From Bdellovibrionales bacterium (lineage in GTDB: Bacteria > Bdellovibrionota > UBA1018 > CAIMNF01), in the NCBI GenBank assembly GCA_947462765.1, contig CANHQK010000004.1, positions 11,206-75,205 of the forward strand: a DNA stretch of 64,000 nucleotides. The letters are read 5' to 3'. The notes below the pieces were generated by a model, which saw only the letters and a program-made list of their open reading frames with translations, made no database searches and was not told where the DNA came from. Below are positions 21,334 through 62,278 of this stretch, piece after piece; the stretch's first letter is position 1, and each line of letters starts with the position of its first letter. The translations under genes were made by a program, and so were the position numbers.

Positions 21334-21334
21334 T

Positions 21335-35039: not shown

Positions 35040-35369
35040 AGCTTCAGACAGTTTAGGAAGCCTTTTCGTGGGATGTCAAGAAAATGAAGGGCTTGGGGGA
35101 GGCCAGCAAGACATTGGAGCCCCAGAAGTTCACGTGGGCGCCGTATGCTCACTTTAGGCTTCCTACTCGAGGTAGGCATGCTCACCATGAGACAGGCACA
35201 GCCCCCTGGGTCAATGACTGTCGGGTCCAGATGTTTATTGTACTGGTCCCCCAAGCTGAGATCAGTATAGCAATTCAAACTGCGCGAGAAAAGCGCTTTT
35301 TCTATGTGCGGAATGTAAAAATATTTTTAATTTACAGAGCGTTAAATTACTGACAACATTCCTTTACGC

Positions 35370-41533: not shown

Positions 41534-44500
41534 GTGAAAGTTTGGGGGAATCCAGTGCCATTTCGCGGCGTAGGAAAATCACTATTACAGCTTTCGCTCA
41601 GGGGATTCCTCACGGGGATTCTTTTGGCAGGATGCTCGGACCTTGGGTTCCAAGGTGGCGTGATTCCGACGAACTTCAATGGCATCAAGGTGATTGAAGC
41701 CGTATCGCCCGAGGCTTTTCAGATGACCTGGGATCCTTATCCTGGGGCTACTCAGTACCGCGTCTACATGCCAGAACTCAATGAACCCATCGCTCGCCCC
41801 GGGTTCACCACACTCATCACCCGGCCTCCGGGAGGAGTGAACAGTAACGATGGAACCTATTCTTTCTCCGTTACGGCCGTAGATCCGACCACAGGATTGG
41901 AGCAGGGAACGCGTAGCAATTATGTTTCCGCCAAGCTCCTGCCTCGCTTCAACTTCAAGGAAGACGGTGACATTCGCGCACTAGACATGATTCCTTCCAC
42001 CCGTCACGCCGTTCGCGTGGCCTGGACCGCTTACCCTAAGGTGAACTACCAAGTTTACATCGGTGAGCGCTCCCCTTCTGGCCTTGTTGCTTACAACCTG
42101 GATGCTTCGTCCGGCTCGGTACTCGGTGACGGTTCGATCGAGATCGAGAACCTAAAAGAAGGTCGGGAATACTGCGCATTCGTGATCGCGACCTATGCGG
42201 ACTCCACCCGGGATGGCCCGAACGGTCAGCCCTTTACCGGCCCGGTAGCGTCTTTGGTCGGAACACCGTCTACCTTCAACACCAGCGTGGTAGGCACCTC
42301 TCAGAAGTGTGTGCGCACCAAGTCGGACCCTGCCTTTACGAGCACGGTAGAGCAAAGCAAGGTTTACGCTTCCAAGGCCACCCTTTCTAACAAACCCTCC
42401 TTTTTTGCCGACGTCGCAGGGGATACGACCTCGGATGGACAGGGATCTGTTCGGGTTTCCATTTACCGCATGGATGTCGCAACGGGCAATGGAACCTACA
42501 TAGGTGCGTTCAATGGTACTGGTAAGATTGATGCGGCCGAACCCCTTCCTCCCGGCCGTCACACCTTCAAAGCGATCTTTGAAAAACTCGGTGGCAATTC
42601 AACCGCTCAGAAAGAAAAGGGCGTGATTGTAGGTCCGACCGGGATTGAGCCCTCCGAACCCGTGGGAAATCCAGCAGACCGCCCATTTGTTTACGTCCGC
42701 GGCCTGGGCGCAGCTCCCACAGACGAAGGATATTACCCCGAGAAACAGCAAGGGGGGCTCGGGTCACAGCGCATCGGTGCTGCCGTTGCCATGGGTGATT
42801 TCAATTGTGACGGTCGATATGATGTGGCGGTCGGAATGCCCGAATACGTGATCACCTTGCCCGCGCCGGACAACCGCCCGGCAAACTTGGGTAAAGTCAT
42901 GGTCTATTACAACATCGCCTCGAGTGCCTCTTCCACGGCCCAGGGGGTTCGTTCGCAAGAGATTATTTTCAATCTTTCCGACAGAACCACCACCTTCCCA
43001 GGTGGCCGTGATCTGAGGCTTGGAACGCGGCTCCATGTCGGGAACTACAATAGCGACAATCAGGCAACGCACAATCCGCCAGGATACAACGATCCGACAC
43101 TGAATAAACAGTTCCAGTGCGACGACCTTGTAATCGGCTCGGGTTATGGACCCAGTATCTTGATGTATGGCTCTCGCGACACGAGTGGATCCAACGGAGG
43201 CTTGGTCTACAGTGGTCCCAAAGTGTTCATGGAGAACACCCAGTCGTGTAACCCGATTGATAATCGCTGTGACCCGACAATTTACTTCTACTCCAACCCC
43301 GCAGTCTCGCTCTGCCGCAGTTATACAAATGGCGACTTTAACGGGGATGGGTTTGAGGACTTGGCCATCGGAAGTGGTTCCGGTGCCGGGATTTGGGTGC
43401 TCCGTGGGAGTGAGTATGGGCTCATTCCGCCGAAAGCCCGTCGATTCTCCTCTGACCAAACTGCCTATACCTTTACTGGGGGAGATACTTTTTCAACCGA
43501 CGATGGGCCGGGTGGACGGATTAACTTCCCGTATGTTCACTCGAACACGAGCAGATTCTTCGCCCCATCGAGTTTCAGCAATGGATTCGCACCCTCTGCC
43601 ACTGGCTGGAGCAACACCAATAATTTCGGAGCCTCACTCGGGGCAATCCGTAATGCATTTTACGACCCGGACAACAACAGGTCTAAATCGATTCTGCTAA
43701 TCGGGAGTCCAGACACTCCCAGCACAGGCGCCGCCGGGACGACCCAAAGCAGAGGCCGCGTGTTCGCTTGCGTCCTCAGATCATTGACCGGGGATCGTCC
43801 TTCACCCCTGACCGGAACTTTCAGCAACTCGTTCAACAATGATTCAATGGAAAATCAGGCGTGGGATTGCAATCATGCGATCAATCCTCCCATTCGCTCA
43901 GGAGTCCAGCCCTTCACATCAATCGCCTCGGCCTCAGGGTTCGGCTCAGCAATGGCGACCCTCGATAACCCTCTGAGATACCGTGTCGCGCCTTTTTGGG
44001 AAGGAGGCTCCCAAGAATCGTGTCCTGCGATTGCTGGGGGTGTGGAAGCTCCTCGAGCTCACGGAAACTGCTCCTCTAGCTCGTTGAACTTGGGGATCCC
44101 CGGGGGAGTCGCCATTGGGGCCCCGGGTAGCAATCAAGTTTTCGTTTACTACGGTGTGGCCGTACCCGGAGCGATGGGGACTCGAAACACCCAAGGCTCG
44201 GCCCGCAATGCCTACATCGGCCAGTACTTCGATCGGCTACTGGATGGTTCCACCAATACAGTTCACAATACGACCTCAGGAAGCACCAGTGCCCCGGCCT
44301 ATGCATCAGAAGTAACAACCTCTGATCCATGCACCGCCACCAACTCAAACACGGAAGCATGCTACATCCAATTGATCACCCAACCCTCGACACCATCCGG
44401 GTCTTTCGGCCTGACCTTGTCCAGCCTTAGAGGAAACATCATCTCAAACGAAGGAGACAGTCCCCAGGACTCAACCCTCGGGGTATCCGCACCCTACCGC

Positions 44501-46924: not shown

Positions 46925-49900
46925 AACCTCTGCTCGAAGGCTAACCATTCTTTTGCTGCCGCTACTTGCCTCCTGTTCAGACGGCCTCCTCGGAGGAAAC
47001 ATCACCGCCCAATTCGCGGGGATCAATAAGGCTACCGTAATGGGGCCTACCTCCGTAAGCATCGACTGGAAACTTGACTCTAAGTGCTCGAGCTATGAGA
47101 TTTATGCTTTGACCGCAAGCACCACCAGTAGGCTACGTCTTGCGTCGGTTCCACCCGTGATCTTGAACGCACAAGAAGATCAGATTCAGAGCGAAACTTC
47201 TTATAGTTTTGCCGTAGGCTGCAACCGCGAAGGAAAACTCACCGGGCTTGATGTGAGCACAAACGTCAGCACCTGGAGGGAGTTCGACGGGGTCATCAGC
47301 AATCCCGAATCCTTGGAAGGCGGGGCTTTCCGCTTCACCTGGGATTACCCGCAGGACCAGGGCACGCGCTACCTCGTGTATGCCATAGAATCACTCATTC
47401 CAGGAGCTCCCACTCAGCTGACTCGGAAAAACTCCTCAAACTTCCGCATCGGATATCAAGACGAACCGATTTGCACCACCTTCAATAACCGGATCACACT
47501 CGGGCCAGGTGGGGAGTGCAATCCGGGGCCTTCGAAACTTAAACCAGGTAGCCTCTATCAGTTTCATGTAGTAGCCCAGTACCCCGACAACAACTACTCA
47601 AACAATTTAGCGTCCAACGCCAAGAGTAAACTGATCGATCCGAGTTTCGAAGCGCCGAATTGCAACCTGACCCAACTGGGTCTAGGGCCTGAGGCTGGAA
47701 GCACCTACCTTTATTTGCGATGTTCCGACAACGGGGCCGCAAACTCCTGTGGATTTAACAATATTACGGCCCGAGCCTATCAAGGCATAGGGGGAGTCAG
47801 AAACCCCATCTCTGGTGAACTTACTCTCAATTCATCACAAAGCAACATTCTGCAGATCCAAGCCACCCCCGGCCTTGACCCAACAAACGAGCGCTTGGTC
47901 AAGAACCTCGAGGTGGAATACACCTGCCGACGCCCCGGACAGCCGATCGAGAGAATGGTGGTACGGTACGACAATTCCAATGGCCGCCGTGAGCCACTCA
48001 TGAAATATGGCAATTCCGGCCCAGGTCGGAACTACGAAACCGCGCCTGAGCAATCGGTTTGGTCCGACCCACGATCAGCCAACCCTACCCTGCTTTCTCC
48101 GAGTCGAATGGGAGAAAGTCTGGCTGTTGGAGACTTCGATTGTGATGGAAATCCGGATCTCGCTGTGGGCTTGCCAAATATCACCTACAACCAAGCTCCC
48201 TACTTCAATGAGAACCCGTCATCCGGCGCGGTCAAGATCTACTATAATTATTCGACATCCGCAAACGGCACCATTACCGCTGCTAACGGGATCCAAATGC
48301 TCACCTTTGGCGATCTGTTAACAGGATCTCGTTTCGGTGCGAGCCTTTCAGCTGGAAATATCAATAAAGACGTTGCCAAGTCAGTAGTCGACAACTTTGA
48401 GAGCTACTATTCTTGTGACGATCTGATTATCGGCGCACCGGGCAACGCGAATGAAAGCCTCGGTCGAGCTTTCATTTTTTACGGGCAACGCCAACGCTTT
48501 CCGAATTATCCAGTGAAAGCGGCCGATCTTCCTAAAAACAGCCCGACCTGCAGCAGCTCTTCTTTGATCCAGCAAAACTGCACTCCCGTTGAGCTCATCA
48601 CGAGTGATTATGCAGAAAAATTTAGAGTTCACCCCGACACTCACAACATCAACAATACGACCTGGTGGGGGAACAGGGGTTACTTCGGACATAGCGTTGC
48701 TTACCTTCGAGACTTTAATGCTGATGGATATGGAGACGTGGCCGTTTCAGACCCGAACTGCTCCTGGGATGGCTATGAGACTTACAATGGCTTCGGATTT
48801 ACCAACAACGGGGGGAATTCAATTTTGGATGTAGGCTGTGTCTACGTCTATTTTGGTGGAAAAGAGGGGATACAAACGGTCGACGTGGGTGTTCCCGTCC
48901 ACCCGAATCTGGAACAGTTCTTCCCGGGAAACATGGTGTCCTCGCCCTACATCAAAGTCTATCCACCTTTCATCCAGGCCGGCATGCATTTCGGGACGAG
49001 TATCGCGGCCGGGGGAGATATCGATGGGAGACTGCCTGTACCCATCCCTGTTTCTCAGTCACAAATAGCACTGGCCAATGGCTATGATTTTGTCGTGGGT
49101 GCGCCGGATTTTTCCTATGCCTCGCCAGTGTCAAACAGCGGGGGTCAGCTGCCCGCTACGCAATCAATGAATTATTTGGCCTTGAATGTTGAAGACCCAT
49201 ATGTCAGGCAAGCTGACGCAAACTATTCGACCACGACTACTTCCAGAAAAAACACACCTCCGATCAATGGAGCTTGGACTAACCAACAATGGTCGGCTGG
49301 GGCGGCCCCCCTGCCTCCCGCAGGAGACAATGCCACATCGGGCCTACGGAATTCCACAGGCATCGTATTCGCTTATTTCGGAAGAAGCGCTCTGCAGGAC
49401 TACAACGTAACGGTCAACGCGGGGGCGAATTGGTTTCCAGAGGGCAATGGCGCTGGCACAATCAGCTTACCCGGCGGGAACAACTTCAAGAGTCTTTTAG
49501 ACCTTTTTTCAGGGAGCATCCGTGATCGCCAGGGACATCGGGGTCACTTGGCGCTCGCCAGCTACGGGGCTTCCGACCTTGCTCAAATCAGGCCAACACG
49601 CTCATTTTTCAATTGCGGAACCCGGGGCGCGCCGACGCTTCCTGCAAATCACCCCACGCACGGCCAAAGGATTCATCACTATTCCTGTCTCGCAGGCCGG
49701 AATAATTTTTCAGCCATCTTCCCGCACATCAAGCACTCTGACCCTGCTGTGTCGGGATTCGGTTCGAGCTTGAGCATTGCAGGAACCGAAGACTCAAATC
49801 TGATTGCTCAGTACCACTTGAGTGAATTTCTCGGAAGCTCTAGTTTTGCAGAGACTTCTGCCGAGAACGGCGTGCTTCAATTAATCTACAATGCCCAAGG

Positions 49901-52900
49901 ACAGGTGCATCAACGTATCAGGGGCCACAACATGTGGGAGGTGGCTGTCAGGAATTTCAGCGGTGATAGCACCATCGCAAATCTGGCTTCAAACAATTTG
50001 TCATCTGGTTTGACGATCGGATCCCCCGTGAATGCGGCGAAGGTCCGCCGGTCGGCACTAAATGAGTTCATTTCCATGGATGGGGCAACCGCTCCAACGG
50101 GTGGCTCTCGGCCTCAAATGGACCTGAATCGAGATGGATACGGAGACGTAGTCGTCGGCAGCAGACTCAGTCCCAATACTTCCATCGGACGATCAACCCT
50201 GTCCATTCATTACGGGAATTTCGCCGGTGACTTCTCCTACGCCTATGGCCGTTACCTCAATGACCCGTCTTCCTCACCCTCGACAAGCAACTCCTCGTGC
50301 TTGGCGCAACGTGGCTCATCCATCACCACGCCCGGTCCTTCAGCGAACAATGCCTCGCTCACTAACGCTGCAACTGCCTTCTCCACCTTCCAAGCCCAAT
50401 CCAAAGTGGTTTTTGACTCGAAGACCATGACGGTTTCGGCCGAGTTCCCGAACCTACGGCTACCGAGCAATGCCGGCATCGTTTATTTTGTTGATGGAAC
50501 AGACGCAACGACCTCCGTCACAAGCCGTAACGGCGCCTCAACGGCAGGTTCATCTTGTAAACCGCAGATTAGGACTTTGTTGGGGTATCAGCCATCATCC
50601 CTGGCATCGGCGGACGTCAATGGTGATGGGATGTCCGACATGGTTGCTGGCTATGCCGAATCGAACGGTCGCCAAGGCTCAACCTCCGTCCTTTACGGAA
50701 ACCCCTTCAATGGTGTAGGCGCCGAGGGTGTGATCAACACCTCTTCTCCGCAAGCACTCTTCGGCTCATCCGTAGCCGCTTCCTCATGGAAGTTCCTTCT
50801 GGGCACAAACGAAAGACGTAATCACGAGCACCTGCGCCGGGACGTCTGGGTGGGTGCCCGTGGGCGTAATTCCGGTGAAGGGGCTGTATTCGCCCATTCT
50901 TCTTCAAGCACCATTACTGCTGATGTCCCACTCAACACAGCCGTGGCGGGCTCGGAAAATCCATTTACCGACAGTTCCAACTCACCCAATCGTCTTTATG
51001 CGGAAACTTCCCGCATCATTGGTGACATCAATGGGGATGGATTTGACGAAATCTTGGTTCCAGTCAAAAGAGTGGATCTGAATGGTGCCGAATATTTTGA
51101 CGGAATGATCTATTTCGGCTCATCCATGGGTCCTGTCACCAACTCCTTTTGCAGAGCTAGAATATCCGAAATGAGGACCCAACCCACGAATGGCCAGACT
51201 CTTTCTGCAAGTGAGTGTTTTGGTTCAGTCGGTGGCTCAATCTCGGCGTATATAAATGGGACTCTACTGCGTCTGCCACAGTATTTGGAAAGGCCTACCG
51301 GGGTTGGCCCGAATTGGATTCGTCACAGCTTCCGGGCTGGTGATGTCAACAAAGACGGCCGTGAGGATCTGGTATTGTACGACCAAGGCACCTCATACAA
51401 CCAACTCTACCTGTTCTTCGGGTCGGAGTCCGGCATTATCAACGGCGAACCATTGTGGGGAGTCAGTGCCAACCGAAATCCCCAAAAGGTTGCTACCAAT
51501 GTTGCCAGGCCACAATCGGATTATGAGCTCACGACCAATATGGATTGGCAGGATCGTCACTCTAAGGCTGTAGCCTACGGTGATTTCAATGCTGATGGTT
51601 ATGCGGACTTTGCACTCGGGCAGCCCTCAGCTAGCAGTCCAGCCCTTAGTGCGACATCGGCTGACGGTAACGGCAGATGGGACTGCTCGAATACCTACTA
51701 TGATAATAACCTAACCTACACTGGTCTTTGTGAAGGGACCGGGAACGGGTCGGCACTGGATGATTCTGGTCATGTGGTGGTATTTTACGGGAGTAGTGGC
51801 GGTTACCAGACCCCCTCCCGCTTGGCGACGCCGATTGACGCCCAGGCCCCAGCGACCTGTGGCGATTATCTCACGGGCTGCACAAGTGCTGCAAACTCTC
51901 CGTTTCGTGAGGTTTACGGAAGCTTGTATTTCAGTAACTCGACCTATCGCCTCCGATGGAGCGAGACCGGCACACCCGCTGCCGACGAGGGCGAGGCAAC
52001 ATGTAATCCAGACGCTGAGTTGAACAATGGACCAAGAAACTGTGGTAGCAGAGCCACCGTAATCCGTAGTCCGTTTTTTCACAACTTCGCCGGGGGCGCG
52101 CTCTACCTGAGGGACCAGTTCTTTGGTACCAGCCTCGCGGCAGGGGATTTCAATGGAGATGGCATCACAGATCTTGCCGTCGGAGCCCCTCGCCACCAGC
52201 TGGATCGGTTCGACCTCCCAGGATGGGCGAACGAGATATCGCTGTATGGATTGACCTCCGGCGGTGGACAAGACACCTCTCAACGGGGTTCTGTATTCTT
52301 GTACTACGGATCAAGAGGGGGTGTGGTAGCTCCCCGCGCCCAGGACTACTATGGTGATACCGGAATGGGACTGAGTGGTGCCAACCTGACTCCGGTAGGA
52401 TCCCGTGGCCTGTTTGCACTTTCTCCCGAGCCTTGGAATTCTTCCAGCGGAGTCACCCAGCCCACGCTTGATGGTACTGGGTCAGGGCGCAAATTCGGCA
52501 TGAACATGGCTGTAGGTGATTTCAACGGGGACTCACTCCACGACCTGGTGGTGAATTCATCGCGCGGCCAACTCTATGTGTACTACGGTCCTCTGTGCAA
52601 TGTGGACAACTCGCGCGCCTATGTCCGAGCCATGTATGCAAATGCGGGCCTCAGTATGCCAGCATTCAACGAGCCTGGGACTCCCGTATTGTCTGATCCG
52701 GGGCCGTGCCCAACCTTTAACCTAAACAACTACACCAATCGGGCATCGATAGCCGTAGAGAATCGTACCAAAAGACAAATTCCACAGACGATCGCCCTTC
52801 CTGGCATTAACCCCAACCTCGATATGAAATTCGGAAGTGTCTTGTTAGCAAGTCTTCCATCCAAGGGGGGCAATATAAACGGAGATCCGGGAATTCAGCC

Positions 52901-53324
52901 TGGTGATGCAGTGTCAGGCACCTCGGACCTGATCGTGGGTGGCGGTGGGCCCGATGCTCATGACACAAAAATCCCTCGAGTGGGGGGACGCCGGAGCGGC
53001 ATCGGGTTCATTTTATTCGGACACTCCTCGGGAGGGGCACTCAACTCAAGACCGGGGCTTTTTGCATCAGCTCCGGCCGACTACAACTCGACAATCTTCT
53101 CGTCCACTTCCGGAAACCAGACCCGGCTTCATTTTTCTCCTTTGGCTCTCAGGCCCTATGAGGCGAATGGATCGGTGGGTATCTTTTTCTTGAACAATGT
53201 CAGTTTAGGGGATTTGAACGGGGATAAAACCGGGGACCTGCTGATGCCGACTGTCGATATCGATTATTCGGGACATCAAGCCACACCGGTCATCTCCGGA
53301 GGCGGATTTAAACTGATGTACTGA
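46911..53324 (+). CDS. Giant surface lipoprotein 2 (~2137 aa) with ten or more FG-GAP-like repeats
   Basis: Lipobox LLPLLASCSDG. Motifs GDFDCDGNPDLAVG, RDFNADGYGDVAVS, LNRDGYGDVVVG, ADVNGDGMSDMVAG, GDINGDGFDEILVP, GDVNKDGREDLVLY, GDFNADGYADFALG, GDFNGDGITDLAVG, GDFNGDSLHDLVVN and GDLNGDKTGDLLMP. ATG at 46911 with SD AGGGGGAG, overlapping the end of gene 1 by 14 nt. Ends ...KLMY. Confidence 0.8.
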   Translation: MFYRKTSARRLTILLLPLLASCSDGLLGGNITAQFAGINKATVMGPTSVSIDWKLDSKCSSYEIYALTASTTSRLRLASVPPVILNAQEDQIQSETSYSFAVGCNREGKLTGLDVSTNVSTWREFDGVISNPESLEGGAFRFTWDYPQDQGTRYLVYAIESLIPGAPTQLTRKNSSNFRIGYQDEPICTTFNNRITLGPGGECNPGPSKLKPGSLYQFHVVAQYPDNNYSNNLASNAKSKLIDPSFEAPNCNLTQLGLGPEAGSTYLYLRCSDNGAANSCGFNNITARAYQGIGGVRNPISGELTLNSSQSNILQIQATPGLDPTNERLVKNLEVEYTCRRPGQPIERMVVRYDNSNGRREPLMKYGNSGPGRNYETAPEQSVWSDPRSANPTLLSPSRMGESLAVGDFDCDGNPDLAVGLPNITYNQAPYFNENPSSGAVKIYYNYSTSANGTITAANGIQMLTFGDLLTGSRFGASLSAGNINKDVAKSVVDNFESYYSCDDLIIGAPGNANESLGRAFIFYGQRQRFPNYPVKAADLPKNSPTCSSSSLIQQNCTPVELITSDYAEKFRVHPDTHNINNTTWWGNRGYFGHSVAYLRDFNADGYGDVAVSDPNCSWDGYETYNGFGFTNNGGNSILDVGCVYVYFGGKEGIQTVDVGVPVHPNLEQFFPGNMVSSPYIKVYPPFIQAGMHFGTSIAAGGDIDGRLPVPIPVSQSQIALANGYDFVVGAPDFSYASPVSNSGGQLPATQSMNYLALNVEDPYVRQADANYSTTTTSRKNTPPINGAWTNQQWSAGAAPLPPAGDNATSGLRNSTGIVFAYFGRSALQDYNVTVNAGANWFPEGNGAGTISLPGGNNFKSLLDLFSGSIRDRQGHRGHLALASYGASDLAQIRPTRSFFNCGTRGAPTLPANHPTHGQRIHHYSCLAGRNNFSAIFPHIKHSDPAVSGFGSSLSIAGTEDSNLIAQYHLSEFLGSSSFAETSAENGVLQLIYNAQGQVHQRIRGHNMWEVAVRNFSGDSTIANLASNNLSSGLTIGSPVNAAKVRRSALNEFISMDGATAPTGGSRPQMDLNRDGYGDVVVGSRLSPNTSIGRSTLSIHYGNFAGDFSYAYGRYLNDPSSSPSTSNSSCLAQRGSSITTPGPSANNASLTNAATAFSTFQAQSKVVFDSKTMTVSAEFPNLRLPSNAGIVYFVDGTDATTSVTSRNGASTAGSSCKPQIRTLLGYQPSSLASADVNGDGMSDMVAGYAESNGRQGSTSVLYGNPFNGVGAEGVINTSSPQALFGSSVAASSWKFLLGTNERRNHEHLRRDVWVGARGRNSGEGAVFAHSSSSTITADVPLNTAVAGSENPFTDSSNSPNRLYAETSRIIGDINGDGFDEILVPVKRVDLNGAEYFDGMIYFGSSMGPVTNSFCRARISEMRTQPTNGQTLSASECFGSVGGSISAYINGTLLRLPQYLERPTGVGPNWIRHSFRAGDVNKDGREDLVLYDQGTSYNQLYLFFGSESGIINGEPLWGVSANRNPQKVATNVARPQSDYELTTNMDWQDRHSKAVAYGDFNADGYADFALGQPSASSPALSATSADGNGRWDCSNTYYDNNLTYTGLCEGTGNGSALDDSGHVVVFYGSSGGYQTPSRLATPIDAQAPATCGDYLTGCTSAANSPFREVYGSLYFSNSTYRLRWSETGTPAADEGEATCNPDAELNNGPRNCGSRATVIRSPFFHNFAGGALYLRDQFFGTSLAAGDFNGDGITDLAVGAPRHQLDRFDLPGWANEISLYGLTSGGGQDTSQRGSVFLYYGSRGGVVAPRAQDYYGDTGMGLSGANLTPVGSRGLFALSPEPWNSSSGVTQPTLDGTGSGRKFGMNMAVGDFNGDSLHDLVVNSSRGQLYVYYGPLCNVDNSRAYVRAMYANAGLSMPAFNEPGTPVLSDPGPCPTFNLNNYTNRASIAVENRTKRQIPQTIALPGINPNLDMKFGSVLLASLPSKGGNINGDPGIQPGDAVSGTSDLIVGGGGPDAHDTKIPRVGGRRSGIGFILFGHSSGGALNSRPGLFASAPADYNSTIFSSTSGNQTRLHFSPLALRPYEANGSVGIFFLNNVSLGDLNGDKTGDLLMPTVDIDYSGHQATPVISGGGFKLMY

Positions 53325-53353: not shown

Positions 53354-56300
53354 GTGAAACGCTTGAAGATGTCGTGGCTATCTGCACTGCGCGTGGGCGC
53401 GATCTCACTTCTTCTGGGTTCGTGTACCGGGGGCGAAAACGCTCTTCCCAATCGGGCCGGGGGAATTCGGATCGCTCCGGGGGAACGCGTACACGTGGAC
53501 CTCCAGGACATTGTCGCCCTGAACCCGCGTCGATACAATGTCGTACTGAAAACCGTAGGCCCGGACTATCTTCCTAAAGGGGACATTTTGGATCTAACCG
53601 CCGCAGCCAAGGCGGCACTGGCAAGTGGATCCACCCGATTTACTTTCACGCTCCCCAAAAACACCACGACTCCTAAACCCTTCCTTCTGGCCGTTGATAT
53701 CCCCGACCTCAACATCAATGACTCTCTTGTTGATGTGGTTTTTTCGGGTAACTCATTCGTAAGGCCCGGAATTGCTTCGCGTTTGGCTTTTGATCTGCTG
53801 GATTCTTACAACACGACACAGAATCCAAAACCAATTCAGGCCTACAGTGAAGCGGAATTCACTGCCATTCGGGGAATTATTCAATCCCGCATCGATGCTT
53901 TGATGTCTCAATCTGAAAAGCTCAGCTTTTCAGTTCTTCCTTATCTCAAACTCATGACTTTTTTTCGGAACGGACTGGCCTACAACCCCTGGGTGTTGAG
54001 CGCTGTCCGCGATTTCGGAGTCAATTTCACCTTCACGGAATCCACCTACCCGGGGATTGTCGCCGAAGACACCATCGAAAACTCGCTGAATACCTGCACA
54101 CGCGAAATTTGCTTCAAACTTGCCCGCGACTTTAAAATCAATTCTGAGAATGCACCGGTTGCGCCCTTCAAAGCCCGAGCCAATGTGGCCACTGAGGTCC
54201 CGGTCGGCCAGGCCATACCGATGCCCGGCAAGAACATTGCCGTGAGCGAAGGCATGTGTGGCATCTCCGGATGCTCTCCCCGTTTGAGCGTCGTCGTTAA
54301 GCCTTTCGACCCCGAAGGAGACCATATAGAAAAGCTCCTCTGGGTAAAATATCGACCCAGGCAACTTCCTCCGTCCATGAGGAACCGCCCGACCTTCGAC
54401 CCACTTAAGGAGCCGATTGAAAAATCCACGGCTCTCAAGTCCGACTCGTTTGGAAAATACCTGCCCGTTACGGACATCAGCCTTGATGAGCCGGACCGTT
54501 ATGAGCTATATGAAATCAGCCATGATGAAGCCCTCTTGAAGCGCAACTATCCCGATAGCGTTTGTGCAGAGAGCGGCGCCCCAGTATTCAACGACCAGTG
54601 TCACACGGCCTATCGCGATGTTTTTGCCATGTACACCGACGGCATGGTCTGGGTCCCCTACCGGTGGAACTTTGTATACAATGACACCAACCGCAAACCG
54701 GAATTCATCAGGAACGCACAAAACGAGATCAACAGTACCCTGTACGACGAGGCCATCCAGTCGGGCTTCCCCAACCCCGAGTCCGATGTTCCGGGTGTTC
54801 CGGGGTGGAAACTCCACAATTCCCATTGCGAAAACAACCCGAACGCCACCCCCACTCCAGCCGCTCCTCCATCTGCACAGCCGAGCGGGACCCCGATCAT
54901 CAACTACTACACCCGGATCCAGGATAAGAAGGACGGCCCTTGGAGCTGTGCTTTTTTGGCTTTCGATCCCGACATTGATCAAGACCCCAACGGTGCCCCG
55001 GACCAGTTCTACTTCAAAGTGACCGGCAGAACCATGCAGACCAAGATCCGTTTGGGTGGGCAGATCACGGCTTCGAGCCCGGGGGTGCCGTCAACATTTA
55101 CTCAGATGCCGATGCCCTTTTGGCCTCCACCACCGCCCCCAGCCACACCTCGCCCTCCCCAGCAGGCGCCCATGGAGTTGCTGAGCTGCCCCGCTGGCCA
55201 CACCCGATGCGGTGCTGCGATTGCCCAAGTCACCGTCGATAATGCCGTGAAAGAACAGACCCCGGAGGTTTCGTTCGACATAGAAGTGTTTGATCGCGCC
55301 GAAAACGGGATGTTTTCAATGGCTACCGCACAGAGAGGGGTGATGTTTTCCCCCAAACCGCCACTGTTGATCAACTTCTCAGACCCGCCAACGACCCGCG
55401 AATCATTCAATACGATCACCAATTATTTCCCTGAACCCAATGGTCAGGCTGAGCCGATGCGCCTCAGGTTCGACGCTTACCTGGATGAGATTTTAGCTCA
55501 GGCATTGCCCGTTAACAATTCTTACGAAGCCATCGGTTTTGATACGAGCATGCTTGGGAATACCAACCGAGCGAACTTTAGAATTCAGTCACTAGAGCCT
55601 GGCTTAATTGACTTCAACATGAGTCCTTATCTGACCCAACCTAGATCACTCTGTTCGAGCGCTAGCCCGACAGACAACGGCACCCAATGTCGCGGAACCT
55701 TTAATGTGGGGACAGCGACCATCAATGGGGAATTGCGAGTGATCCAAGGTTCGCCAGGAACCTCCGTGAGGATGGGCAACTCCCTGCGCTTTGCAGACTC
55801 CGGAAACTATTCATTTCCCCGTGAGTATGACTTTTCTTGCTTCACCAACTCCGGACCGGGGTGGAATCAGACTCCCGTGTCAACCGCTACAGGTCGGAAT
55901 ACCTCAGGGGGCTGGGCATTCGAGATCAACTTCATTGACTTTGACAACGTCAACTTAAATCCTGACGAACCGCCTGAAGTCATGTACCTGAGTCCCCAAA
56001 ACAATGTCCGTCATTCGGACTCGTTATTCTACTGTAATGCGCCTGCCCCGAATATGGACTCTCCCATTTTGGGGCATGTTTACACTGCAACCAATGCTGC
56101 GGGCACCAACGCCAAAGACCCGGATCAGTGCCTATCTCTTGCCCCCCTTCAGGGCAAGATCACCCTTCAACCCGTACCTGTTCTTTATGAAGGCACAGAA
56201 ACCCTTGGCGCTGCCCCATCGATCAGAAAATTAGTGTATCACCGGATCCGTGGCATCTGGAGGCCCAAGGATCAAGGCCTAGAGGGCAAAACGGACAACC

Positions 56301-59300
56301 AAGATCCCCGAGGACTGATCCAGAATGCATTGACACGCTTCAAGGTTTTCGGGCGCTTACATGACCTCGGTCTTGAGAACAAAGACTTTGACCGCTCCGA
56401 GCCAATTGTTTTTCAGTACGGGCGAAACATCCCTCGCCCCCTCCAATTTCTGGCTCAAAAGCGCGAGATGGCGCCCTGCTTGGCCGGAAACGCGATCAGT
56501 AACTCGACCCAACAACTGAGCAGCAGCAACCCAAACGGAACGGAGATCCGTTTTGCAATCCAGGACGAGAACAAGACCAACTCGACTGTACAAACCTTTG
56601 CGGGTTCAGTGAGAGGATACGATGAGGCCCAACTGGAAGTCCTCGGAAGCCGAACGCTCGGGGACTCCGAGTTGCTGAAGTTCATTCCCTACCTCTCCAA
56701 CTGCACAGTTTCCGAACCCGCACCACCATCAATGACTGTGAATGTGACCCATCGGTGGACTGCCGTGCCGGGAGCGAATGGATACATCGTTGATGTGGTT
56801 TACCCCGGTGGGAGCCAGATGGGGAACATCGTGGCTTCAACGAGCCATACTGCAACCAATCTGCCAGCTTTTCGGGATGTGGACTTTATCGTTCATCCCA
56901 CATTTCCAAATCCAACTCCTCCACTCCCATCTCAAACTCCGACTCCGAATCCAATTCAAACCACTTACCAGACATACGCTTTGGCTCCGGCAACCAGCAC
57001 AACCACTCCCACCTTGCCCCGTCCGGCGGTGTGGAGCGTTTCCAATCCGGACTTGGTTTCAAGTCCATTTATTCGCCTGAGAGCCGCATACGATGCCCCG
57101 ATCTCGGCCAATCCGTTTTGCTTGAAATCCAACACCTTGCCCTTGACCGGGGCTGGGGGCGCTGCATTCGACGGGGTTTGGCGCGTGGCTCGAACCGATA
57201 CGACGACAACTGACCGACTGAAATTGGCTTCTATCATCTTTTCAAACTGCACAGATCAACCCAACGTTCTGTTGCATGCTGACGCAAAAGCGCTTTACTT
57301 TGCCGTGAAAAGATCGGCCAACCCGGCCTGTAATGTCCCGGTTGGGCAACAGGTATTGGACCAGAACCTGGATTGGAGGAACCCAGACAATAGCCCGGCT
57401 ACACCAGGCCGACTGATGGTGCACTCGGTCTGGGCTCTTGATCCAACCTCCGCGGAGTTCGGATCACTGAGCCTTCCTGTGGCATTGACCTCCGCCAACT
57501 ACTTTTTCGACCTCTTCCCGTCTCTCTTTGGTCGAACCACTGGATTACCAAATTTTGTCACCGCCGCACACTACAACGAGCAAAATCGGCTGTTGTTTTT
57601 CGTGCGCCCGTTGAATCAATTCATTTATAACAATGTTTTTCAGTCCATCTCCGGCTACGGTCGCAACACTTACGCCGGCGCCTGGAACCCCACTGAAATC
57701 GGGGCCACCGCGATCAGTAATCAGCTATTAGCCGGCCCTCCCGATCTCGAGAGCCGCTTGCCCCTCACTAATAACACGGAATACGCTGCCTTCTCCCGCA
57801 TGCCTCACCTACCGATCAATGCCGGAGGAACTTACGATGTATCCATTTCCTACGGGGATGTAGACGCGCAGATCAACAAGTTGGTCACCCCCGGTACCTT
57901 GAACTCAGGAAGCCTGGTTTCCGGCGATCCCGATACCTACTTCCGGATGGAGAGCTCAAACCAGGTCCTGGCGATCTACGCTAAGCCGCTTCCCTCCTCT
58001 TCTTCCTCGCCGAGAACCATATCGATTCCCGTGCAGGCCCTCGACCAATACGATGAAGCCAACCCGAAGGTCGAGGACGATCCCTACGATGTGATCACGT
58101 ACGGAATTTCGACAATCGGCCCATCGAGTTCACCCGTTCCCCAAGAAATACCTAGTTTGTCTGGCTTCGGCACACGGGGAGCGAACTGCAGTTCAGGACC
58201 CAGCACCTATCCGACAACGATCTCGACCCGCAATTTGGTCAGCCTGCAGGACTTCAAGCGTTGCATTCTCCAGTGGCGGATTTTTCCACAGGATGCGGGT
58301 AAGGAGTTTTCATTTAATCTGGTCGCTCAAGACAACCTCGGGGCGACTCCTAGTGTTCCCGGGGTCGGCGGGTCTGGAAACCAGAACGGCCCCAGCAGAA
58401 ATTTCACAGTTAGAATCTTTAGCCTGGAACAAAATCAGAAGCCGTTTTTCACATCGACACCGGGATCCACAACCGCCCTTTCCTCCGCCAGCTACAATGG
58501 TGGGACCTCGGTCAGCTCCTGGAATCAGGTCTTCACCACCGCCGGCGGGGCGAGCCAGGCCGGAGTACAGCCGACGTGCATTCCCGGATCCACCTCTCTT
58601 CCTTACTCTTGCGTTCTGTCGCCACCCGCGTCAGCGACGCTTGCGGTTGGGACCGGAGATGTGTTGATTAACTCGACTCCCATTGAATTCGATGAATCCG
58701 CCCTGGTCGGGCAAGTATCGCCCGAGTACGAGATCCAGGTCCACGCCAAGGACACTGCATCCCTCGATCCGCTCAAGAATATCATCGTAGACTCCAGCCG
58801 GCCCACCAGGGGTGTGTTAATTGCGGGGGGGGCCAACAAAGGGGCGACCTACTTGATGCCTTCTTGGACGAGCCTGAGCGTCACAGAAAGTGGCGCTTCG
58901 GATTATGACGTTAATTCGGACGGAACGAACGATACTCGAGGAAAGACCTTTACGATCAGGTGGCGCCCGAGAGACGAGGAGGCGAGATTTCTTTCAAACT
59001 CCGAGGGGTTCCTGATTCCATTCAACCTCACGGACAGTCCTTATGTTCCGGGCGGGAGCGGAGCCCCGGCAGGGTTCCAGATCAGCGCCGAACGCGTCAC
59101 GGCTTGGGTTTGGGTCAGGCTGAGAGTGAGGAATCATGCGCCTCTTGTATCTTATTTTGTCAACCCCGGTGCCAATCCCAATGCCTCCGACTGGAAGTCG
59201 CTGAACTCGGGTGAAACCATCGAGGTGGTCGCCGGCAAGTCCGCAACCGTGAGGGTTCGTGTCGTGGATGCTGACCATGCCCGGGTCTGGGCACCCAATG

Positions 59301-62278
59301 GTGGCGTCAACAGCACGGAACTTGCGTCTTCTTATCTGCGCCCGGCAGACACTTATCCGCATCCTTATTTTCAGCCCATTGACCAAATTGCGAGCTTTTC
59401 GACCGCAGCCAACCCCTCTGCACCATCTAGCGTCACTGCCGACACCTTCATGGGGCTGAACGACTCGAACGGAAGGAGAGTGATTCAACAGACTTTCGAC
59501 TTTACCGTTTCACCTCCTGCTGGCGAATCCGCCGTTAAAAAACACGAAATCAAAATCCATGTCCGAGACCCGGGCGATCCGACACTCGACCTCGCACTCA
59601 ACGGATCAACCGTGGACAGTAGCGGCAGCCCGAAGCGCGTGGTGTCGCCCCCCATCGAGCTGAAACTCAATGTGAACGTCACAGGCAAGGCCGGGTTTCT
59701 GGCACCGAAGACGCAGTCCAATCCGATTCTGATCACCTCTCCCCGTTCCACCATCACGCGGATGAACTTTCGTTTGGCCCTGAAAGTCACGAATGCCTCC
59801 GACCTTGCTCCGACAAATGCGAACAAGAACTTCTTCATGGGGATCTTGGTGAGGGGAGCCACCTCGACTTCACCTAATACAGTTCCAACGGCCACCCCAT
59901 CCTCTGGCCAGATTCCGAACAATTCAGGGTTTTATGTGGATCAGAACTATTCTCTTTTCCTGACCCAGGGTTCATTTGCCTCCAGCTCAAATGAGGGCCA
60001 GATCAGGCGGTTTGAATTGGGAGCGGTGAATAACAGCCATTGCCCGAGTAGTTTGATGTCCACAGCCCCAACCGCGACCAACCCCTCGCCTGTCACTTAC
60101 CCGATTGTTCTCGCCCGGATCAACACCTCTGGTACACCTGCCATACAGTATTGCTACCTCACCCCCACCGCAATAGCCGATGGCTTGGCCCAAACGGTGG
60201 TGGATCACCAAGTTACCGCTGAGCTTCAGTATCCAGCGGTTCCCTCATCGCTTTACCGGGCAGAAATTGAACGACTGAGTCGACCCCTGGTGACCTCGAG
60301 TCAACCCGAACTGAATGCGGAGTTTCAAGATTTCTTCAATCGTTGTCGGTCTTTTACCGGCGGGGCAGGATACTGTTCATCTTACGATAGCGGCACTCTG
60401 TCACTCATCGGAGGCAACCTGACCACCGGTGGCGCCCCCGGTAATCAGCTGGTTTATAATTCCGGCAATAATCAGCAAGCTATTTTTAGTGTCTCAGCAA
60501 CCGATCGAGTGACCAAAATCGTGAGGGACCTGGCACCGAGCAATTCACGGAGCTTGGAAGCCTACGCATTAAAAGGGGAGACACTGAAGTTTACCGCTGA
60601 AATCGATCCTGCTTTCGGACTGGATGCGGCTCGACCCATTTTTGCCCGCTGGTACGTAAATGGCTGCCTCAACCAGGTGGATACGATCACGAGTGCATCC
60701 CTTCCCCCATTTGAAATCAAAGCAAGCGACCGGGGAGCGGGACCGCAAAATGACTGCAGCGGAAAGTTCGAGAGGACCAACGAGCCCTTGGCAGGTGATC
60801 TCGGCCTCTACCTTGTACGCTTGGTGTTGGTGAATGGCGGAGAGGCGACCAACACATCGAATGCCTCACTGGACCACCCGGCCAGCAGCACCTCGGCAAC
60901 CTACCTTTACCGCGTGCGGGTCGTGAATACCCGCCCCGAGGTGATGACGAACTCGAGCGGGAGAGGTGCCGTTTCAGTGGCGCTTTCTCAGGCTACCGTT
61001 CCTCTTGCTATCCCATTCAAGGAATATTCCAGAAACCTGATTGCCTTCGTGGCAAAAGATACGACCTCACAAACGGCGAACTTCATCCGGATCCGTGAAT
61101 TGACCTCAACAGGAGATCTTTTGACTTCGAGTGCGACCGTGAATTGCGCAGTTTCAGAGACGCCTCGATGGCTCGGAGTGCATCCAGTCGGCTCTAACCT
61201 GAATGTGGCCCTTCTAGGGAACTCGAGCCGATGGTCACCAGGATTGGACCTTGCCTCTGCGTATCCGAGTTCAGACTCTTTATACGGTTCCAATTCGTTT
61301 GGTTGCTACAGATCCTTTGCCTCCAGCGCAATCAGCGGTGTGGTTCAGCCTGGGGCAGCCGGATCCAGCATGGTGGCTTCGACGGCAGCCCTTTCCAAGT
61401 ACACTGCCTCCTCAAGAGTCACCGCGAATTGGGGCGGAAGTTATCTCTTTGACTCCGAACTGCCCTCGGACACGAATGCCTCACGGACCGTTTCAAGCCG
61501 AGAATTCTGGAGCTCCACTACGCTTTTACAATCCAATCCCGCTTGCCCCAACGGCTCAGGATCCTTCTTGCCGAACCTCTTCGGCTGCAACCCGAACCCG
61601 TACACTGCATTTCCAAAAAATCGCGTATACAAAATGTTCACCTCAGGAAATACGCTGTTTCAACTCATGGGTCCCGGCCCAGGGATTGGTGATCAATCCC
61701 AAGGCCAGATTTTGGTCCACAGCCTGTCGGCGAGCGCTTCCTGGAGCGGGAACACTGCGGTCTCGTCGAACCTCAGAACCCTTACATTCGGCCCATCGAC
61801 CGGGGGGGGCACCACCTGCGTTATTCCGAATACGGTTCTGCCATTTCCGGTGGATGCCACCTACCACAGCCAAAGCGACACCCTGTATGTCATCACAACC
61901 GATACCGGCTCATCAGCTCTAGGTGATTTCATGATCATTCGAGGGGCTACGACGAGCTCACCTTCTTGTTCGTCGGTCGGGAAGGTCGCAAAACCTTCGA
62001 CGGACCCATTGGTGAACAATACCAACCTCACGAAAATGGTCGTGGATGCGAACCGGGGACTGGTCTATGCATTGATCACCCTGGACTCCTCGGGAGAGCT
62101 GATCGTATACGACACGATCACAGGCCTTCCGCCCGAGAGACAAACTCTTGGCTTTTCGCCCCTGACCCTCCTTTTGTACGATACCGGTCAGGGCGAAACC
62201 CATAACAATCTAGCTCTCATCATGAGTCGGCAGTACGTCACTTCATCGAATGCTCCGGCCCTTTACAGACTTTACTGA
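53354..62278 (+). CDS. Giant secreted/lipo-protein 3 (~2974 aa), compositionally distinct (S/T/N/G/P/A-rich), no FG-GAP motifs seen
   Basis: Signal plus a probable lipobox ISLLLGSCTGG. Proline tracts (PMPFWPPPPPPATPRPPQQAP, PTPTPNPIQTTYQTY). Very low Lys/Arg/Glu content. Ends ...ALYRLY with a terminal aromatic. 30-nt gap after gene 2 with SD GGGAAGAGGGGGGG. Confidence 0.75.
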   Translation: MKRLKMSWLSALRVGAISLLLGSCTGGENALPNRAGGIRIAPGERVHVDLQDIVALNPRRYNVVLKTVGPDYLPKGDILDLTAAAKAALASGSTRFTFTLPKNTTTPKPFLLAVDIPDLNINDSLVDVVFSGNSFVRPGIASRLAFDLLDSYNTTQNPKPIQAYSEAEFTAIRGIIQSRIDALMSQSEKLSFSVLPYLKLMTFFRNGLAYNPWVLSAVRDFGVNFTFTESTYPGIVAEDTIENSLNTCTREICFKLARDFKINSENAPVAPFKARANVATEVPVGQAIPMPGKNIAVSEGMCGISGCSPRLSVVVKPFDPEGDHIEKLLWVKYRPRQLPPSMRNRPTFDPLKEPIEKSTALKSDSFGKYLPVTDISLDEPDRYELYEISHDEALLKRNYPDSVCAESGAPVFNDQCHTAYRDVFAMYTDGMVWVPYRWNFVYNDTNRKPEFIRNAQNEINSTLYDEAIQSGFPNPESDVPGVPGWKLHNSHCENNPNATPTPAAPPSAQPSGTPIINYYTRIQDKKDGPWSCAFLAFDPDIDQDPNGAPDQFYFKVTGRTMQTKIRLGGQITASSPGVPSTFTQMPMPFWPPPPPPATPRPPQQAPMELLSCPAGHTRCGAAIAQVTVDNAVKEQTPEVSFDIEVFDRAENGMFSMATAQRGVMFSPKPPLLINFSDPPTTRESFNTITNYFPEPNGQAEPMRLRFDAYLDEILAQALPVNNSYEAIGFDTSMLGNTNRANFRIQSLEPGLIDFNMSPYLTQPRSLCSSASPTDNGTQCRGTFNVGTATINGELRVIQGSPGTSVRMGNSLRFADSGNYSFPREYDFSCFTNSGPGWNQTPVSTATGRNTSGGWAFEINFIDFDNVNLNPDEPPEVMYLSPQNNVRHSDSLFYCNAPAPNMDSPILGHVYTATNAAGTNAKDPDQCLSLAPLQGKITLQPVPVLYEGTETLGAAPSIRKLVYHRIRGIWRPKDQGLEGKTDNQDPRGLIQNALTRFKVFGRLHDLGLENKDFDRSEPIVFQYGRNIPRPLQFLAQKREMAPCLAGNAISNSTQQLSSSNPNGTEIRFAIQDENKTNSTVQTFAGSVRGYDEAQLEVLGSRTLGDSELLKFIPYLSNCTVSEPAPPSMTVNVTHRWTAVPGANGYIVDVVYPGGSQMGNIVASTSHTATNLPAFRDVDFIVHPTFPNPTPPLPSQTPTPNPIQTTYQTYALAPATSTTTPTLPRPAVWSVSNPDLVSSPFIRLRAAYDAPISANPFCLKSNTLPLTGAGGAAFDGVWRVARTDTTTTDRLKLASIIFSNCTDQPNVLLHADAKALYFAVKRSANPACNVPVGQQVLDQNLDWRNPDNSPATPGRLMVHSVWALDPTSAEFGSLSLPVALTSANYFFDLFPSLFGRTTGLPNFVTAAHYNEQNRLLFFVRPLNQFIYNNVFQSISGYGRNTYAGAWNPTEIGATAISNQLLAGPPDLESRLPLTNNTEYAAFSRMPHLPINAGGTYDVSISYGDVDAQINKLVTPGTLNSGSLVSGDPDTYFRMESSNQVLAIYAKPLPSSSSSPRTISIPVQALDQYDEANPKVEDDPYDVITYGISTIGPSSSPVPQEIPSLSGFGTRGANCSSGPSTYPTTISTRNLVSLQDFKRCILQWRIFPQDAGKEFSFNLVAQDNLGATPSVPGVGGSGNQNGPSRNFTVRIFSLEQNQKPFFTSTPGSTTALSSASYNGGTSVSSWNQVFTTAGGASQAGVQPTCIPGSTSLPYSCVLSPPASATLAVGTGDVLINSTPIEFDESALVGQVSPEYEIQVHAKDTASLDPLKNIIVDSSRPTRGVLIAGGANKGATYLMPSWTSLSVTESGASDYDVNSDGTNDTRGKTFTIRWRPRDEEARFLSNSEGFLIPFNLTDSPYVPGGSGAPAGFQISAERVTAWVWVRLRVRNHAPLVSYFVNPGANPNASDWKSLNSGETIEVVAGKSATVRVRVVDADHARVWAPNGGVNSTELASSYLRPADTYPHPYFQPIDQIASFSTAANPSAPSSVTADTFMGLNDSNGRRVIQQTFDFTVSPPAGESAVKKHEIKIHVRDPGDPTLDLALNGSTVDSSGSPKRVVSPPIELKLNVNVTGKAGFLAPKTQSNPILITSPRSTITRMNFRLALKVTNASDLAPTNANKNFFMGILVRGATSTSPNTVPTATPSSGQIPNNSGFYVDQNYSLFLTQGSFASSSNEGQIRRFELGAVNNSHCPSSLMSTAPTATNPSPVTYPIVLARINTSGTPAIQYCYLTPTAIADGLAQTVVDHQVTAELQYPAVPSSLYRAEIERLSRPLVTSSQPELNAEFQDFFNRCRSFTGGAGYCSSYDSGTLSLIGGNLTTGGAPGNQLVYNSGNNQQAIFSVSATDRVTKIVRDLAPSNSRSLEAYALKGETLKFTAEIDPAFGLDAARPIFARWYVNGCLNQVDTITSASLPPFEIKASDRGAGPQNDCSGKFERTNEPLAGDLGLYLVRLVLVNGGEATNTSNASLDHPASSTSATYLYRVRVVNTRPEVMTNSSGRGAVSVALSQATVPLAIPFKEYSRNLIAFVAKDTTSQTANFIRIRELTSTGDLLTSSATVNCAVSETPRWLGVHPVGSNLNVALLGNSSRWSPGLDLASAYPSSDSLYGSNSFGCYRSFASSAISGVVQPGAAGSSMVASTAALSKYTASSRVTANWGGSYLFDSELPSDTNASRTVSSREFWSSTTLLQSNPACPNGSGSFLPNLFGCNPNPYTAFPKNRVYKMFTSGNTLFQLMGPGPGIGDQSQGQILVHSLSASASWSGNTAVSSNLRTLTFGPSTGGGTTCVIPNTVLPFPVDATYHSQSDTLYVITTDTGSSALGDFMIIRGATTSSPSCSSVGKVAKPSTDPLVNNTNLTKMVVDANRGLVYALITLDSSGELIVYDTITGLPPERQTLGFSPLTLLLYDTGQGETHNNLALIMSRQYVTSSNAPALYRLY

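Follow-up and report, generated by a model that had tools for sequence, protein, structure and literature searches.

Giant surface proteins known from bacteria consist mostly of tandem repeats. The adhesin SiiE of Salmonella, a chain of 53 tandem BIg repeats secreted by a type I secretion system (T1SS), needs the MotAB-like proton channel SiiAB that is encoded beside it in Salmonella pathogenicity island 4 (SPI-4). This pair is a precedent for a MotAB/ExbBD-like channel located next to the giant non-fimbrial adhesin that it serves. In Bacteroidota gliding, the giant adhesin SprB is driven by the rotary motor GldLM/T9SS (T9SS, type IX secretion system) (PMC13104615), and the focal-adhesion gliding machinery Agl-Glt of Myxococcus xanthus includes the VWA (von Willebrand factor A) adhesin CglB (Islam et al. 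2023, cited in the review PMC13104615). Here we analyze a stretch of 64,000 nucleotides from a Bdellovibrionales bacterium (assembly GCA_947462765.1, contig CANHQK010000004.1, positions 11,206 to 75,205 of the forward strand; the window), and in it g3, the last of three consecutive giant genes, g1 to g3. Judged by its sequence, g3 is the founding member of a previously undescribed family that is built from known folds and confined to a narrow set of contigs, and it resides in a conserved gene cluster together with genes for a flagellar-type motor.

Agl-Glt/CglB, SprB with GldLM/T9SS and SiiE with SiiAB may be regarded as the nearest functional analogues of this cluster, none of which has its component families. 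Agl-Glt resembles it in bringing together the genes for an envelope-spanning set of parts, namely a motor with a proton channel, a VWA adhesin, TPR proteins and components of the outer membrane, and the host phyla are related, both having formerly been placed in the Deltaproteobacteria. Its motor, however, is the TolQR-type AglRQS, whereas the cluster encodes a flagellar-type MotAB with plug and OmpA domain. A membrane-anchored FliG-like protein as the likely partner of the motor and three giant lipoproteins are present in the cluster but not in Agl-Glt, and the VWA protein of the cluster, with an ordinary signal peptide and no lipobox, differs from CglB. SprB is, as g3 would be, a giant all-beta surface protein tied genetically and functionally to a proton-driven motor of the 5:2 type, with lipoprotein track components. 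It is highly repetitive and exported by T9SS via a C-terminal domain, whereas g3 is non-repetitive, predicted to be lipid-anchored and devoid of a T9SS C-terminal domain (no Pfam match); in addition, GldLM is not homologous to MotAB. From SiiE, and from RTX/T1SS adhesins such as LapA and MpIBP, g3 is set apart by the absence of tandem immunoglobulin (Ig) repeat arrays and of RTX or T1SS features and by its Sec/lipoprotein signal peptide.

The g3 protein and its predicted architecture

The g3 open reading frame (ORF) starts with GTG and comprises 2975 codons, i.e. 2974 residues and a stop, with no internal stop codon; the purine-rich stretch GGGAAGAGG that precedes the GTG could be a ribosome-binding site. 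In comparison with an ortholog of 63% identity, the proportion of synonymous differences (pS) is saturated at ~0.8, while that of nonsynonymous differences (pN) is only 0.14-0.32 in each 300-codon block, and therefore the whole length of g3 is under purifying selection. An earlier note on this DNA had proposed either a lipoprotein or a very large secreted fibre or coat protein and had named internal frameshifts of a decaying gene as evidence to the contrary; a very large envelope protein is borne out by these data, and decay is ruled out. The suspected lipobox is likewise well founded. The N-terminus VKRLKMSWLSALRVGAISLLLGSC has the form MKRLK-MSWLSALRVGAISLL-LGSC, in which a positive n-region and a hydrophobic h-region lead up to a lipobox of the pattern [LVI][ASTVIG][GAS]C (here …LLLGSC, ending in Cys24). 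Cys24 is invariant in 15/15 aligned members and a lipobox occurs in all full-length relatives, supporting the prediction that g3 is a lipoprotein of the Lgt/LspA substrate class.

In composition g3 is S/T/N-rich with an acidic pI. Its low charge, which had been described as extreme, is real (15.9% charged residues, compared to 21-30% in the soluble proteins of the window) but not distinctive, as g1 and g2 reach 15.7% and 15.3%. The long Asn/Ser/Thr/Gly-rich stretches reported for it could not be recovered: S/T/N/G richness is evenly spread, there are no long low-complexity tracts, and the longest run made of S/T/N/G/P/A/Q only is 21 residues. The protein contains 37 cysteines (36 plus the lipid-bearing one), and besides Cys24 there are 19 that are invariant in the 15-member alignment, which would fit a disulfide-bonded protein outside the cytoplasm, in an oxidising compartment. 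DxDxDG loops were correctly stated to be missing (count 0), and the RTX signature GGxGxD is not found either (count 0).

Relatives of g3 are few. A word-indexed search of 5.8 billion clusters, using the single sequence first and the family profile second, yielded only four g3 clusters (99, 63, 31 and 27% identity), none of them added by the profile. Exhaustive HMMER with an N-terminal profile among 1.84 billion representatives retrieved 31 g3-related proteins, ~17 of which are giants of 2576-3242 residues that we refer to as the long branch. A short-branch group of ~2034-2203 residues was matched by HMMER in the first ~200 residues, the part corresponding to the N-terminal domain of g3; in hhalign the two branches are homologous from end to end (probability 100%, E 1e-51, 1825 columns). 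Pfam gave no match to g3 at E up to 10 and none to any of the 15 aligned long-branch members at E 0.05. NCBIfam and PADLOC were equally negative for g3, as were searches of PDB sequences with profiles built from 4 and from 15 sequences and a scan of g3 peptides against genome contigs, while the short-branch profile produced only non-significant Ig-domain matches in the PDB (E 0.6-0.9). The FG-GAP families (PF01839/PF13517), which match g1 at 1e-13 and g2 at 9e-45, are absent from g3 and 14 relatives. Big, Cadherin, PKD and FN3 profiles do not match the long branch, and one short-branch member shows a borderline Big_9 match (E 1e-4, 23.4 bits against a cut-off of 23.6). Neither S-layer anchoring or lattice domains (SLH, CWB2, RsaA-type) in any g3 member nor a characterised S-layer protein or RTX adhesin, the match that the note had named as speaking against its own interpretation, emerged from Pfam, NCBIfam or PDB searches.

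All organism labels attached to cluster genes, including those among the 48 clusters of the downstream gene g6, read Bdellovibrionales or "Proteobacteria" metagenome-assembled genome (MAG). The LigA encoded in the window is 93% identical to that of a lake MAG labelled Bdellovibrio sp., 87% to pond MAGs, 63-73% to Oligoflexia/Bdellovibrionales MAGs and only ~48% to Bdellovibrio bacteriovorus, which places the source in a freshwater lineage of Bdellovibrionota that has not been cultured.

An AlphaFold2 (AF2) model of the last 1200 residues of g3 (m8914334aa8f3), calculated from a 14-sequence alignment, reached a mean predicted local distance difference test score (pLDDT) of 68.1 and a predicted TM-score (pTM) of 0.62 and is almost all beta. 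The part spanning residues 1775-2549 consists of beta-sandwich-like strand groups, and for these ~775 residues preceding the propeller a Foldseek search with the model returned, at E 1e-6 to 1e-8, desmoglein-2, PTP-delta Ig-Fn and cadherin-like domains of RET, with TM-scores that are low because the query is multi-domain. Invariant motifs in the predicted sandwich region are GFLIP, DPGD and RWYVNGC. The latter (residues 2432-2438, window 60647-60667) aligns with the IgG CH2 strand 'NWYVDGVEVH' at a non-significant E of 0.6, the short branch has YRWYVDG at this site, and the likeness is probably a convergent signature of the Ig-fold C-strand. From model residue 778 to 1199, equivalent to g3 ~2550-2974, the strand order describes ~7 four-stranded blades, and the Foldseek matches for this part belong to the propeller class (paramyxovirus attachment heads, clathrin N-terminal domain, methylamine dehydrogenase, sortilin). 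A search of viral folds in BFVD with the g3 model gave generic Ig and propeller matches only, and a phage-fibre origin was dropped for this reason. A model of residues 25-1100 from a 4-sequence alignment had a pLDDT of 28.6 and was discarded.

Going by sequence and C-terminal model, g3 would combine an N-terminal lipid anchor and N-domain with a long, Cys-rich, all-beta stalk and a seven-bladed propeller head. The description of g3 as a protein altogether different from its two upstream neighbors thus holds with respect to the FG-GAP repeats that it lacks, but not for its C-terminus, which is predicted to form a propeller of its own. The proposed structural search pointed to Ig/cadherin-like sandwiches and the propeller. 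Internal repeats were not found in the sequence, with no BLASTP self-hits and a maximum probability of 8.9% in hhalign comparisons of segment against segment; such a non-repetitive design is uncommon among the giant surface proteins of bacteria. Likeness to integrin modules (FG-GAP alpha-propeller plus VWA/beta-I) and to sema or paramyxovirus propeller heads does not go beyond the fold (7-12% identity), and g3 lacks FG-GAP and Ca-loop motifs as well as transmembrane and cytoplasmic tails. Lipoprotein propellers of the periplasm and the outer membrane, such as BamB and E. coli YncE, are single-domain proteins of 35-40 kDa, whereas the propeller of g3 would form the distal end of a stalk of ~2500 residues.

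Two proline tracts had been pointed out in g3. The tract PPPPPPATPRPP is present at residues 591-602, and the linker quoted as PTPTPNP does not occur as such, the sequence being ...PSQTPTPNPIQ.... Both are found only in the window species and the 63% relative P0002, with gaps in the 13 other members, and residues 1151-1200 of g3 fall on 81% gaps in alignment A3. The module WTAVPGANGYIV is termed FN3-like on account of its motif. Together with the Pro/Thr linker, this module (…HRWTAVPGANGYIVDV…) is restricted to the window species, the 63% relative and, in part, P0015, which suggests a recent domain gain inside the stalk.

The termini of g3 (...PALYRLY) and g2 (...GGFKLMY) are as the earlier note gave them. 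The last strand of the model, residues 1195-1199, corresponds to g3 2969-2973, and we infer that the conserved LY[RK][IVL][WY] terminus is the closing strand of the propeller. In the short branch the terminus …V-F-x-V-[KR] resembles the same strand without the terminal aromatic residue, and the g1 and g2 orthologs end in GGAFYV.P and GGF.[LIM][MIF]Y, respectively, a standard FG-GAP blade strand.

The conserved cluster and its motor genes

Eight contigs were examined for the cluster (L001, L002, L003, L005, L086, L087, L088 and L089). On every contig of sufficient length g3 is part of one conserved cluster, in several gene orders, that also contains g1, g2, the VWA protein, a secreted protein of ~400 residues, g4, g5, g6, MotA/MotB and a TPR protein. 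L005 is identical to the window and extends past its end, supplying g5 and g6 (L005 10135-13022) as well as MotA and MotB, and the same gene set is present in L001, L002, L003, L005 and L087. In L001, L002 and L087 (Bdellovibrionales MAG) the order is retained at 27-35% g3 identity and is followed by the TPR protein and small proteins; the order g1-g2-g3 persists down to 15-30% identity, with g1 orthologs upstream of g2 and g3 in L001, L003 and L086. The short-branch contig L086 encodes two FG-GAP giants, a g3-like gene, a 390-residue protein, VWA, MotA, MotB, TPR and a FliG-like protein. Identities to the window or L005 are 40% for VWA, 26% for the 390-residue protein (E 3e-19), 59% for MotA and 25% for g6, and those to L002, the long-branch contig reaching that far, are 37% for MotB and 50% for the TPR protein. 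Two contigs were found via g6 homologs: L088 has the motor module, then divergent VWA and 417-residue genes, then FG-GAP giants, and in L089 g6 adjoins a 427-residue gene and a VWA gene. By their position beside the VWA gene, these 417- to 427-residue genes correspond to the 439-residue gene of the window. Although shuffled, the modules stay next to one another, a strong argument that they make up a single functional system, and we found no prior description of the cluster in the literature.

Genetic coupling of g3 to the two propeller proteins, as presumed earlier, is backed by this conserved order and by short gaps: the intergenic distances are -14 (g1-g2), +29 (g2-g3), 20 (g3-g4) and 43 nt (g4-g5), and no terminator-like sites occur in the gaps from g1 to g5. 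The long ORF of g2 opens at 46815, but the true start lies further in, at a Met codon at 46911 (MFYRKTSARRLTILLLPLLASC, with lipobox). The first 14 nt of g2 are hence shared with the end of g1, an overlap that is also present in L003. With the corrected start and its lipobox, all three giants are lipoproteins by prediction and apparently translationally coupled. The product of g4 has no family matches and is 24-43% identical to its orthologs.

Downstream, g6 consists of a signal peptide, a periplasmic domain of ~150 residues, a transmembrane helix and, on the cytoplasmic side, the middle and C-terminal domains of FliG. There are matches to FliG_M/FliG_C and T. maritima FliG (1e-7) with the charges of the torque helix partly kept, but g6 covers FliG positions 107-315 only, its score of 37 bits lies far below the cut-off of 227, and it is not a canonical FliG. 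A FliG_C-like cytoplasmic domain behind a transmembrane helix is seen in g6 and in g5 of L002, and the N-terminal periplasmic parts of g5 and g6 are paralogs of each other (BLAST 5e-8). To our knowledge, a membrane-tethered FliG-like protein encoded beside MotAB has not been described. The MotA of the cluster matches PomA/MotA at 3e-46 compared to 1e-5 for TolQ, but with 158 bits against the NCBIfam cut-off of 341 it is flagellar-type, not canonical; MotB has a plug and an OmpA domain. Over the same genome pairs identities amount to 76-77% for MotA, 49-58% for g6, 30-35% for g3, 26-29% for g5 and 24-26% for g4. The faster divergence of g3 relative to the motor parts would fit an exposed, ligand- or antigen-facing role.

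Zorya was considered for the motor genes and rejected: a PADLOC scan covering g3, g4, g5, g6, MotA, MotB, VWA and the 439-residue protein gave generic MotB-ZorB similarity only, and no ZorA, ZorC, ZorD or ZorE. At the borders of the cluster in relatives, a serpin gene lies beside the VWA gene in L088 (16502-18756), and L087 carries a 1097-residue protein and an S8 peptidase at 17037-21896; these may be accessory protease or inhibitor partners.

Further features of the window

The features of the locus are compiled in Table 1. The 439-residue and VWA genes overlap by 4 nt, are translationally coupled and diverge just upstream of g1. The 439-residue protein had been taken for a beta-barrel outer-membrane protein on which export might depend; it is indeed co-conserved with the cluster, but its barrel nature is not confirmed. 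It has no Pfam or PDB match, a modest enrichment in amphipathic strands (z ~2.3) and the C-terminus GGKKKK.

Table 1. Coordinates of g3, its parts and its neighbors in the window.
Feature	Position	Strand	Evidence or remark
g3, predicted giant lipoprotein gene	53354..62278	+	intact ORF, full-length purifying selection, 15-sequence alignment A3
Predicted lipoprotein signal peptide of g3	53354..53425	+	lipobox L-G-S-C, Cys24; +2 residue Thr
Conserved N-terminal domain, ~200 aa	53426..54043	+	profile positions 13-205 match P0026, P0029-35; hhalign A3 vs A5
Most conserved g3 region, aa 25-1100	53426..56653	+	conservation profiles; invariant Cys pairs, cadherin-like strand-end motifs
PPPPPPATPRPP tract, loop or linker	55124..55159	+	g3 aa 591-602, lineage-specific
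Clade-specific insertion: FN3-like module WTAVPGANGYIV..., then Pro/Thr linker ...QTPTPNP...	56711..56953	+	aa ~1120-1200
Predicted non-repetitive beta-sandwich (Ig/cadherin-like) chain, aa 1775-2549	58676..61000	+	AF2 model, Foldseek, invariant columns
Predicted C-terminal 7-bladed beta-propeller, aa ~2550-2974	61001..62275	+	
Conserved C-terminal motif P-[TA]-L-Y-[RK]-[IVL]-[WY]-COOH	62255..62275	+	14/15 aligned long-branch members
g1, FG-GAP giant lipoprotein (predicted), 1796 aa, lipobox LLAGC	41534..46924	+	Pfam FG-GAP 1.4e-13
g2, FG-GAP giant lipoprotein (predicted), 2137 aa, lipobox LLASC	46911..53324	+	Pfam FG-GAP 9e-45; corrected start
g4, 317 aa, N-terminal transmembrane helix	62299..63252	+	directly after g3 throughout long branch
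g5, signal peptide, periplasmic domain and transmembrane helix	63296..64000	+	cut by window end; paralog of g6
VWA-domain secreted protein, 466 aa	38589..39989	-	Pfam VWA_2 1e-8; 40% identical ortholog in L086
439-aa secreted protein	39986..41305	-	ortholog in L086, E 3e-19, 26%
Sigma-70-like promoter match TTGACG-17-TACACT	41490..41518	+	16 nt upstream of g1, divergent intergenic region; consensus match only

The window also encodes housekeeping genes. A tandem pair of flagellin genes is located at 31708-32610 and 32737-33570 (+), ~8 kb upstream of the giant genes, and the organism is presumably flagellated for this reason. A 6S RNA at 35085-35261 (-; Rfam RF00013, 66 bits, full length) lies between genes for an RmlD-like protein and a response regulator, and a 497-residue protein at 18165-19658 (+) has an N-terminal GYF_2 domain (E 8e-16) and no further recognisable one. 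Several long ORFs antisense to real genes, among them those at 5263-7173 (+), 4397-5218 (+) and 36814-37611 (-), for example opposite the SdhA-like gene 5209-7143, are in all likelihood spurious; a GC content of 55-59% leads one to expect such ORFs.

A possible motor-coupled adhesion complex and its alternatives

The reading that we tentatively favor, while rating it slightly below an even chance, is that g3 provides the head and the stalk, and thereby the ligand-binding part, of an integrin-like complex in the envelope to which a proton-driven motor is coupled. Once exported by Sec and lipidated, g3 would be directed by its Thr at position +2 to the outer membrane, where it might join g1, g2 and the VWA protein in an integrin-like stalk-and-head complex (FG-GAP propeller plus VWA), whose propeller heads would bind a ligand on prey cells or substratum. 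The MotAB stator would act on the membrane-anchored FliG-like proteins g5 and g6 instead of a flagellar C-ring, so that proton-motive force could move, tension or gate the giant complex across the envelope, in analogy to the Agl-Glt/CglB focal adhesion or to SprB on the gliding track of Bacteroidota. Several points weigh against this assignment. All relatives of g3 come from MAGs or metagenomes, the first 1775 residues have no reliable model, and the C-terminal model is of medium confidence, with blade closure by the last strand deduced from the DSSP order alone. Propellers and Ig arrays are generic folds that do not specify a ligand, and a conserved neighborhood indicates functional linkage, not mechanism. 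The location of g3 may be periplasm-facing instead of surface-exposed, and Lol sorting rules are not established for this phylum. Finally, with flagellar-type MotAB and flagellins 8 kb upstream, the motor genes could simply serve the flagellum.

This last point leads to the main rival, a flagellar accessory structure in which g1-g3, the TPR protein and the FliG-like proteins form a lineage-specific scaffold in the periplasm or outer membrane (a disk, cage or sheath component) round the flagellar motor and recruit or position MotAB. In B. bacteriovorus several MotAB pairs serve a single sheathed flagellum, and lipoproteins and TPR proteins are frequent constituents of flagellar scaffolds; the lipoproteins and TPR proteins among Campylobacter PflA/PflB/FlgP and Vibrio MotXY/FlgOPT are likewise encoded with MotAB stators or act on them. 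The flagellar type of MotA and MotB, the FliG_M/C domains of g6, the conserved TPR protein and the two flagellin genes are all in keeping with this. Those scaffolds, however, are much smaller, have no FG-GAP or VWA domains and are encoded among flagellar genes, unlike the cluster, inside which the eight contigs show no flagellar structural genes (flg, fli, flh). No known flagellar scaffold has three lipoproteins of 190-320 kDa, the combination of FG-GAP propellers and a VWA protein is a hallmark of adhesion, a FliG-like domain that a transmembrane helix ties to a periplasmic domain cannot join a freely rotating C-ring, and g3 evolves far faster than the motor parts. We therefore consider the scaffold unlikely. 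The remaining readings are less likely still. That g1-g3 form a static coat or passive adhesin, with MotAB and the FliG-like genes as mere neighbors of separate function, would agree with the surface-type composition, the predicted lipid anchor, the rapid divergence of g3 and its stalk-and-head architecture, but it is improbable given that giants, VWA and motor genes stay adjacent over at least three gene orders and down to 15-25% identity, which is hard to explain without functional coupling, and that SLH, S-layer or other coat domains were not found.

Far less probable is a secreted toxin complex in which the FG-GAP giants and g3 serve Tc/Rhs/teneurin-like delivery. It can draw on a sub-threshold TcdB_toxin_midN match in g2 (E 0.011; 15.5 bits, the cut-off being 24.8) and a faint match to this family in the L086 ortholog, but all three giants bear predicted lipid anchors, Rhs/YD repeats, SpvB, TcA-like or toxin domains are missing from all 15 members, and PADLOC and toxin matches amount to zero. 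We give the least credence to the suggestion of the earlier note that the terminal aromatic residue is an Omp85/BAM beta-signal, the C-terminus forming or docking to an outer-membrane barrel in autotransporter-like export. An aromatic residue does end 14/15 long-branch members as well as the g2 orthologs, but the alternation of hydrophobic residues at -2, -4 and -6 is broken in the long branch by a conserved Arg/Lys at -2 (P-T-L-Y-R-V-W), the homologous short branch terminates in Lys/Arg, and the terminal strand of g1 and g2 is the ordinary FG-GAP 'GaaYvf' blade strand. As there is no C-terminal transmembrane beta-barrel domain in g3 and the lipobox provides another targeting route, such a signal is unsupported.

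In a wider and considerably more doubtful version of the motor-coupled complex, the cluster as a whole would be an undescribed proton-driven envelope machine, in which MotAB pushes g5 and g6, motion passes through the periplasm to the complex of g1, g2, g3 and VWA, and g3 contacts prey or surface; it would then be a candidate for the as yet unidentified gliding or prey-attachment apparatus of Bdellovibrionota. Nearly 3000 residues without detectable kinship to any curated family are rare for a conserved bacterial gene, and the g3 family adds a new, non-repetitive design to the giant surface proteins of bacteria. Its context is unusual as well, a flagellar-type stator and tethered FliG-like domains remaining linked to a VWA protein and to three giant lipoproteins with propellers across deep divergence and rearrangements. 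The cluster is a concrete, testable candidate in a related lineage, and if the link is real, it would represent a second, independent reuse of flagellar motor parts for powering surface adhesion.

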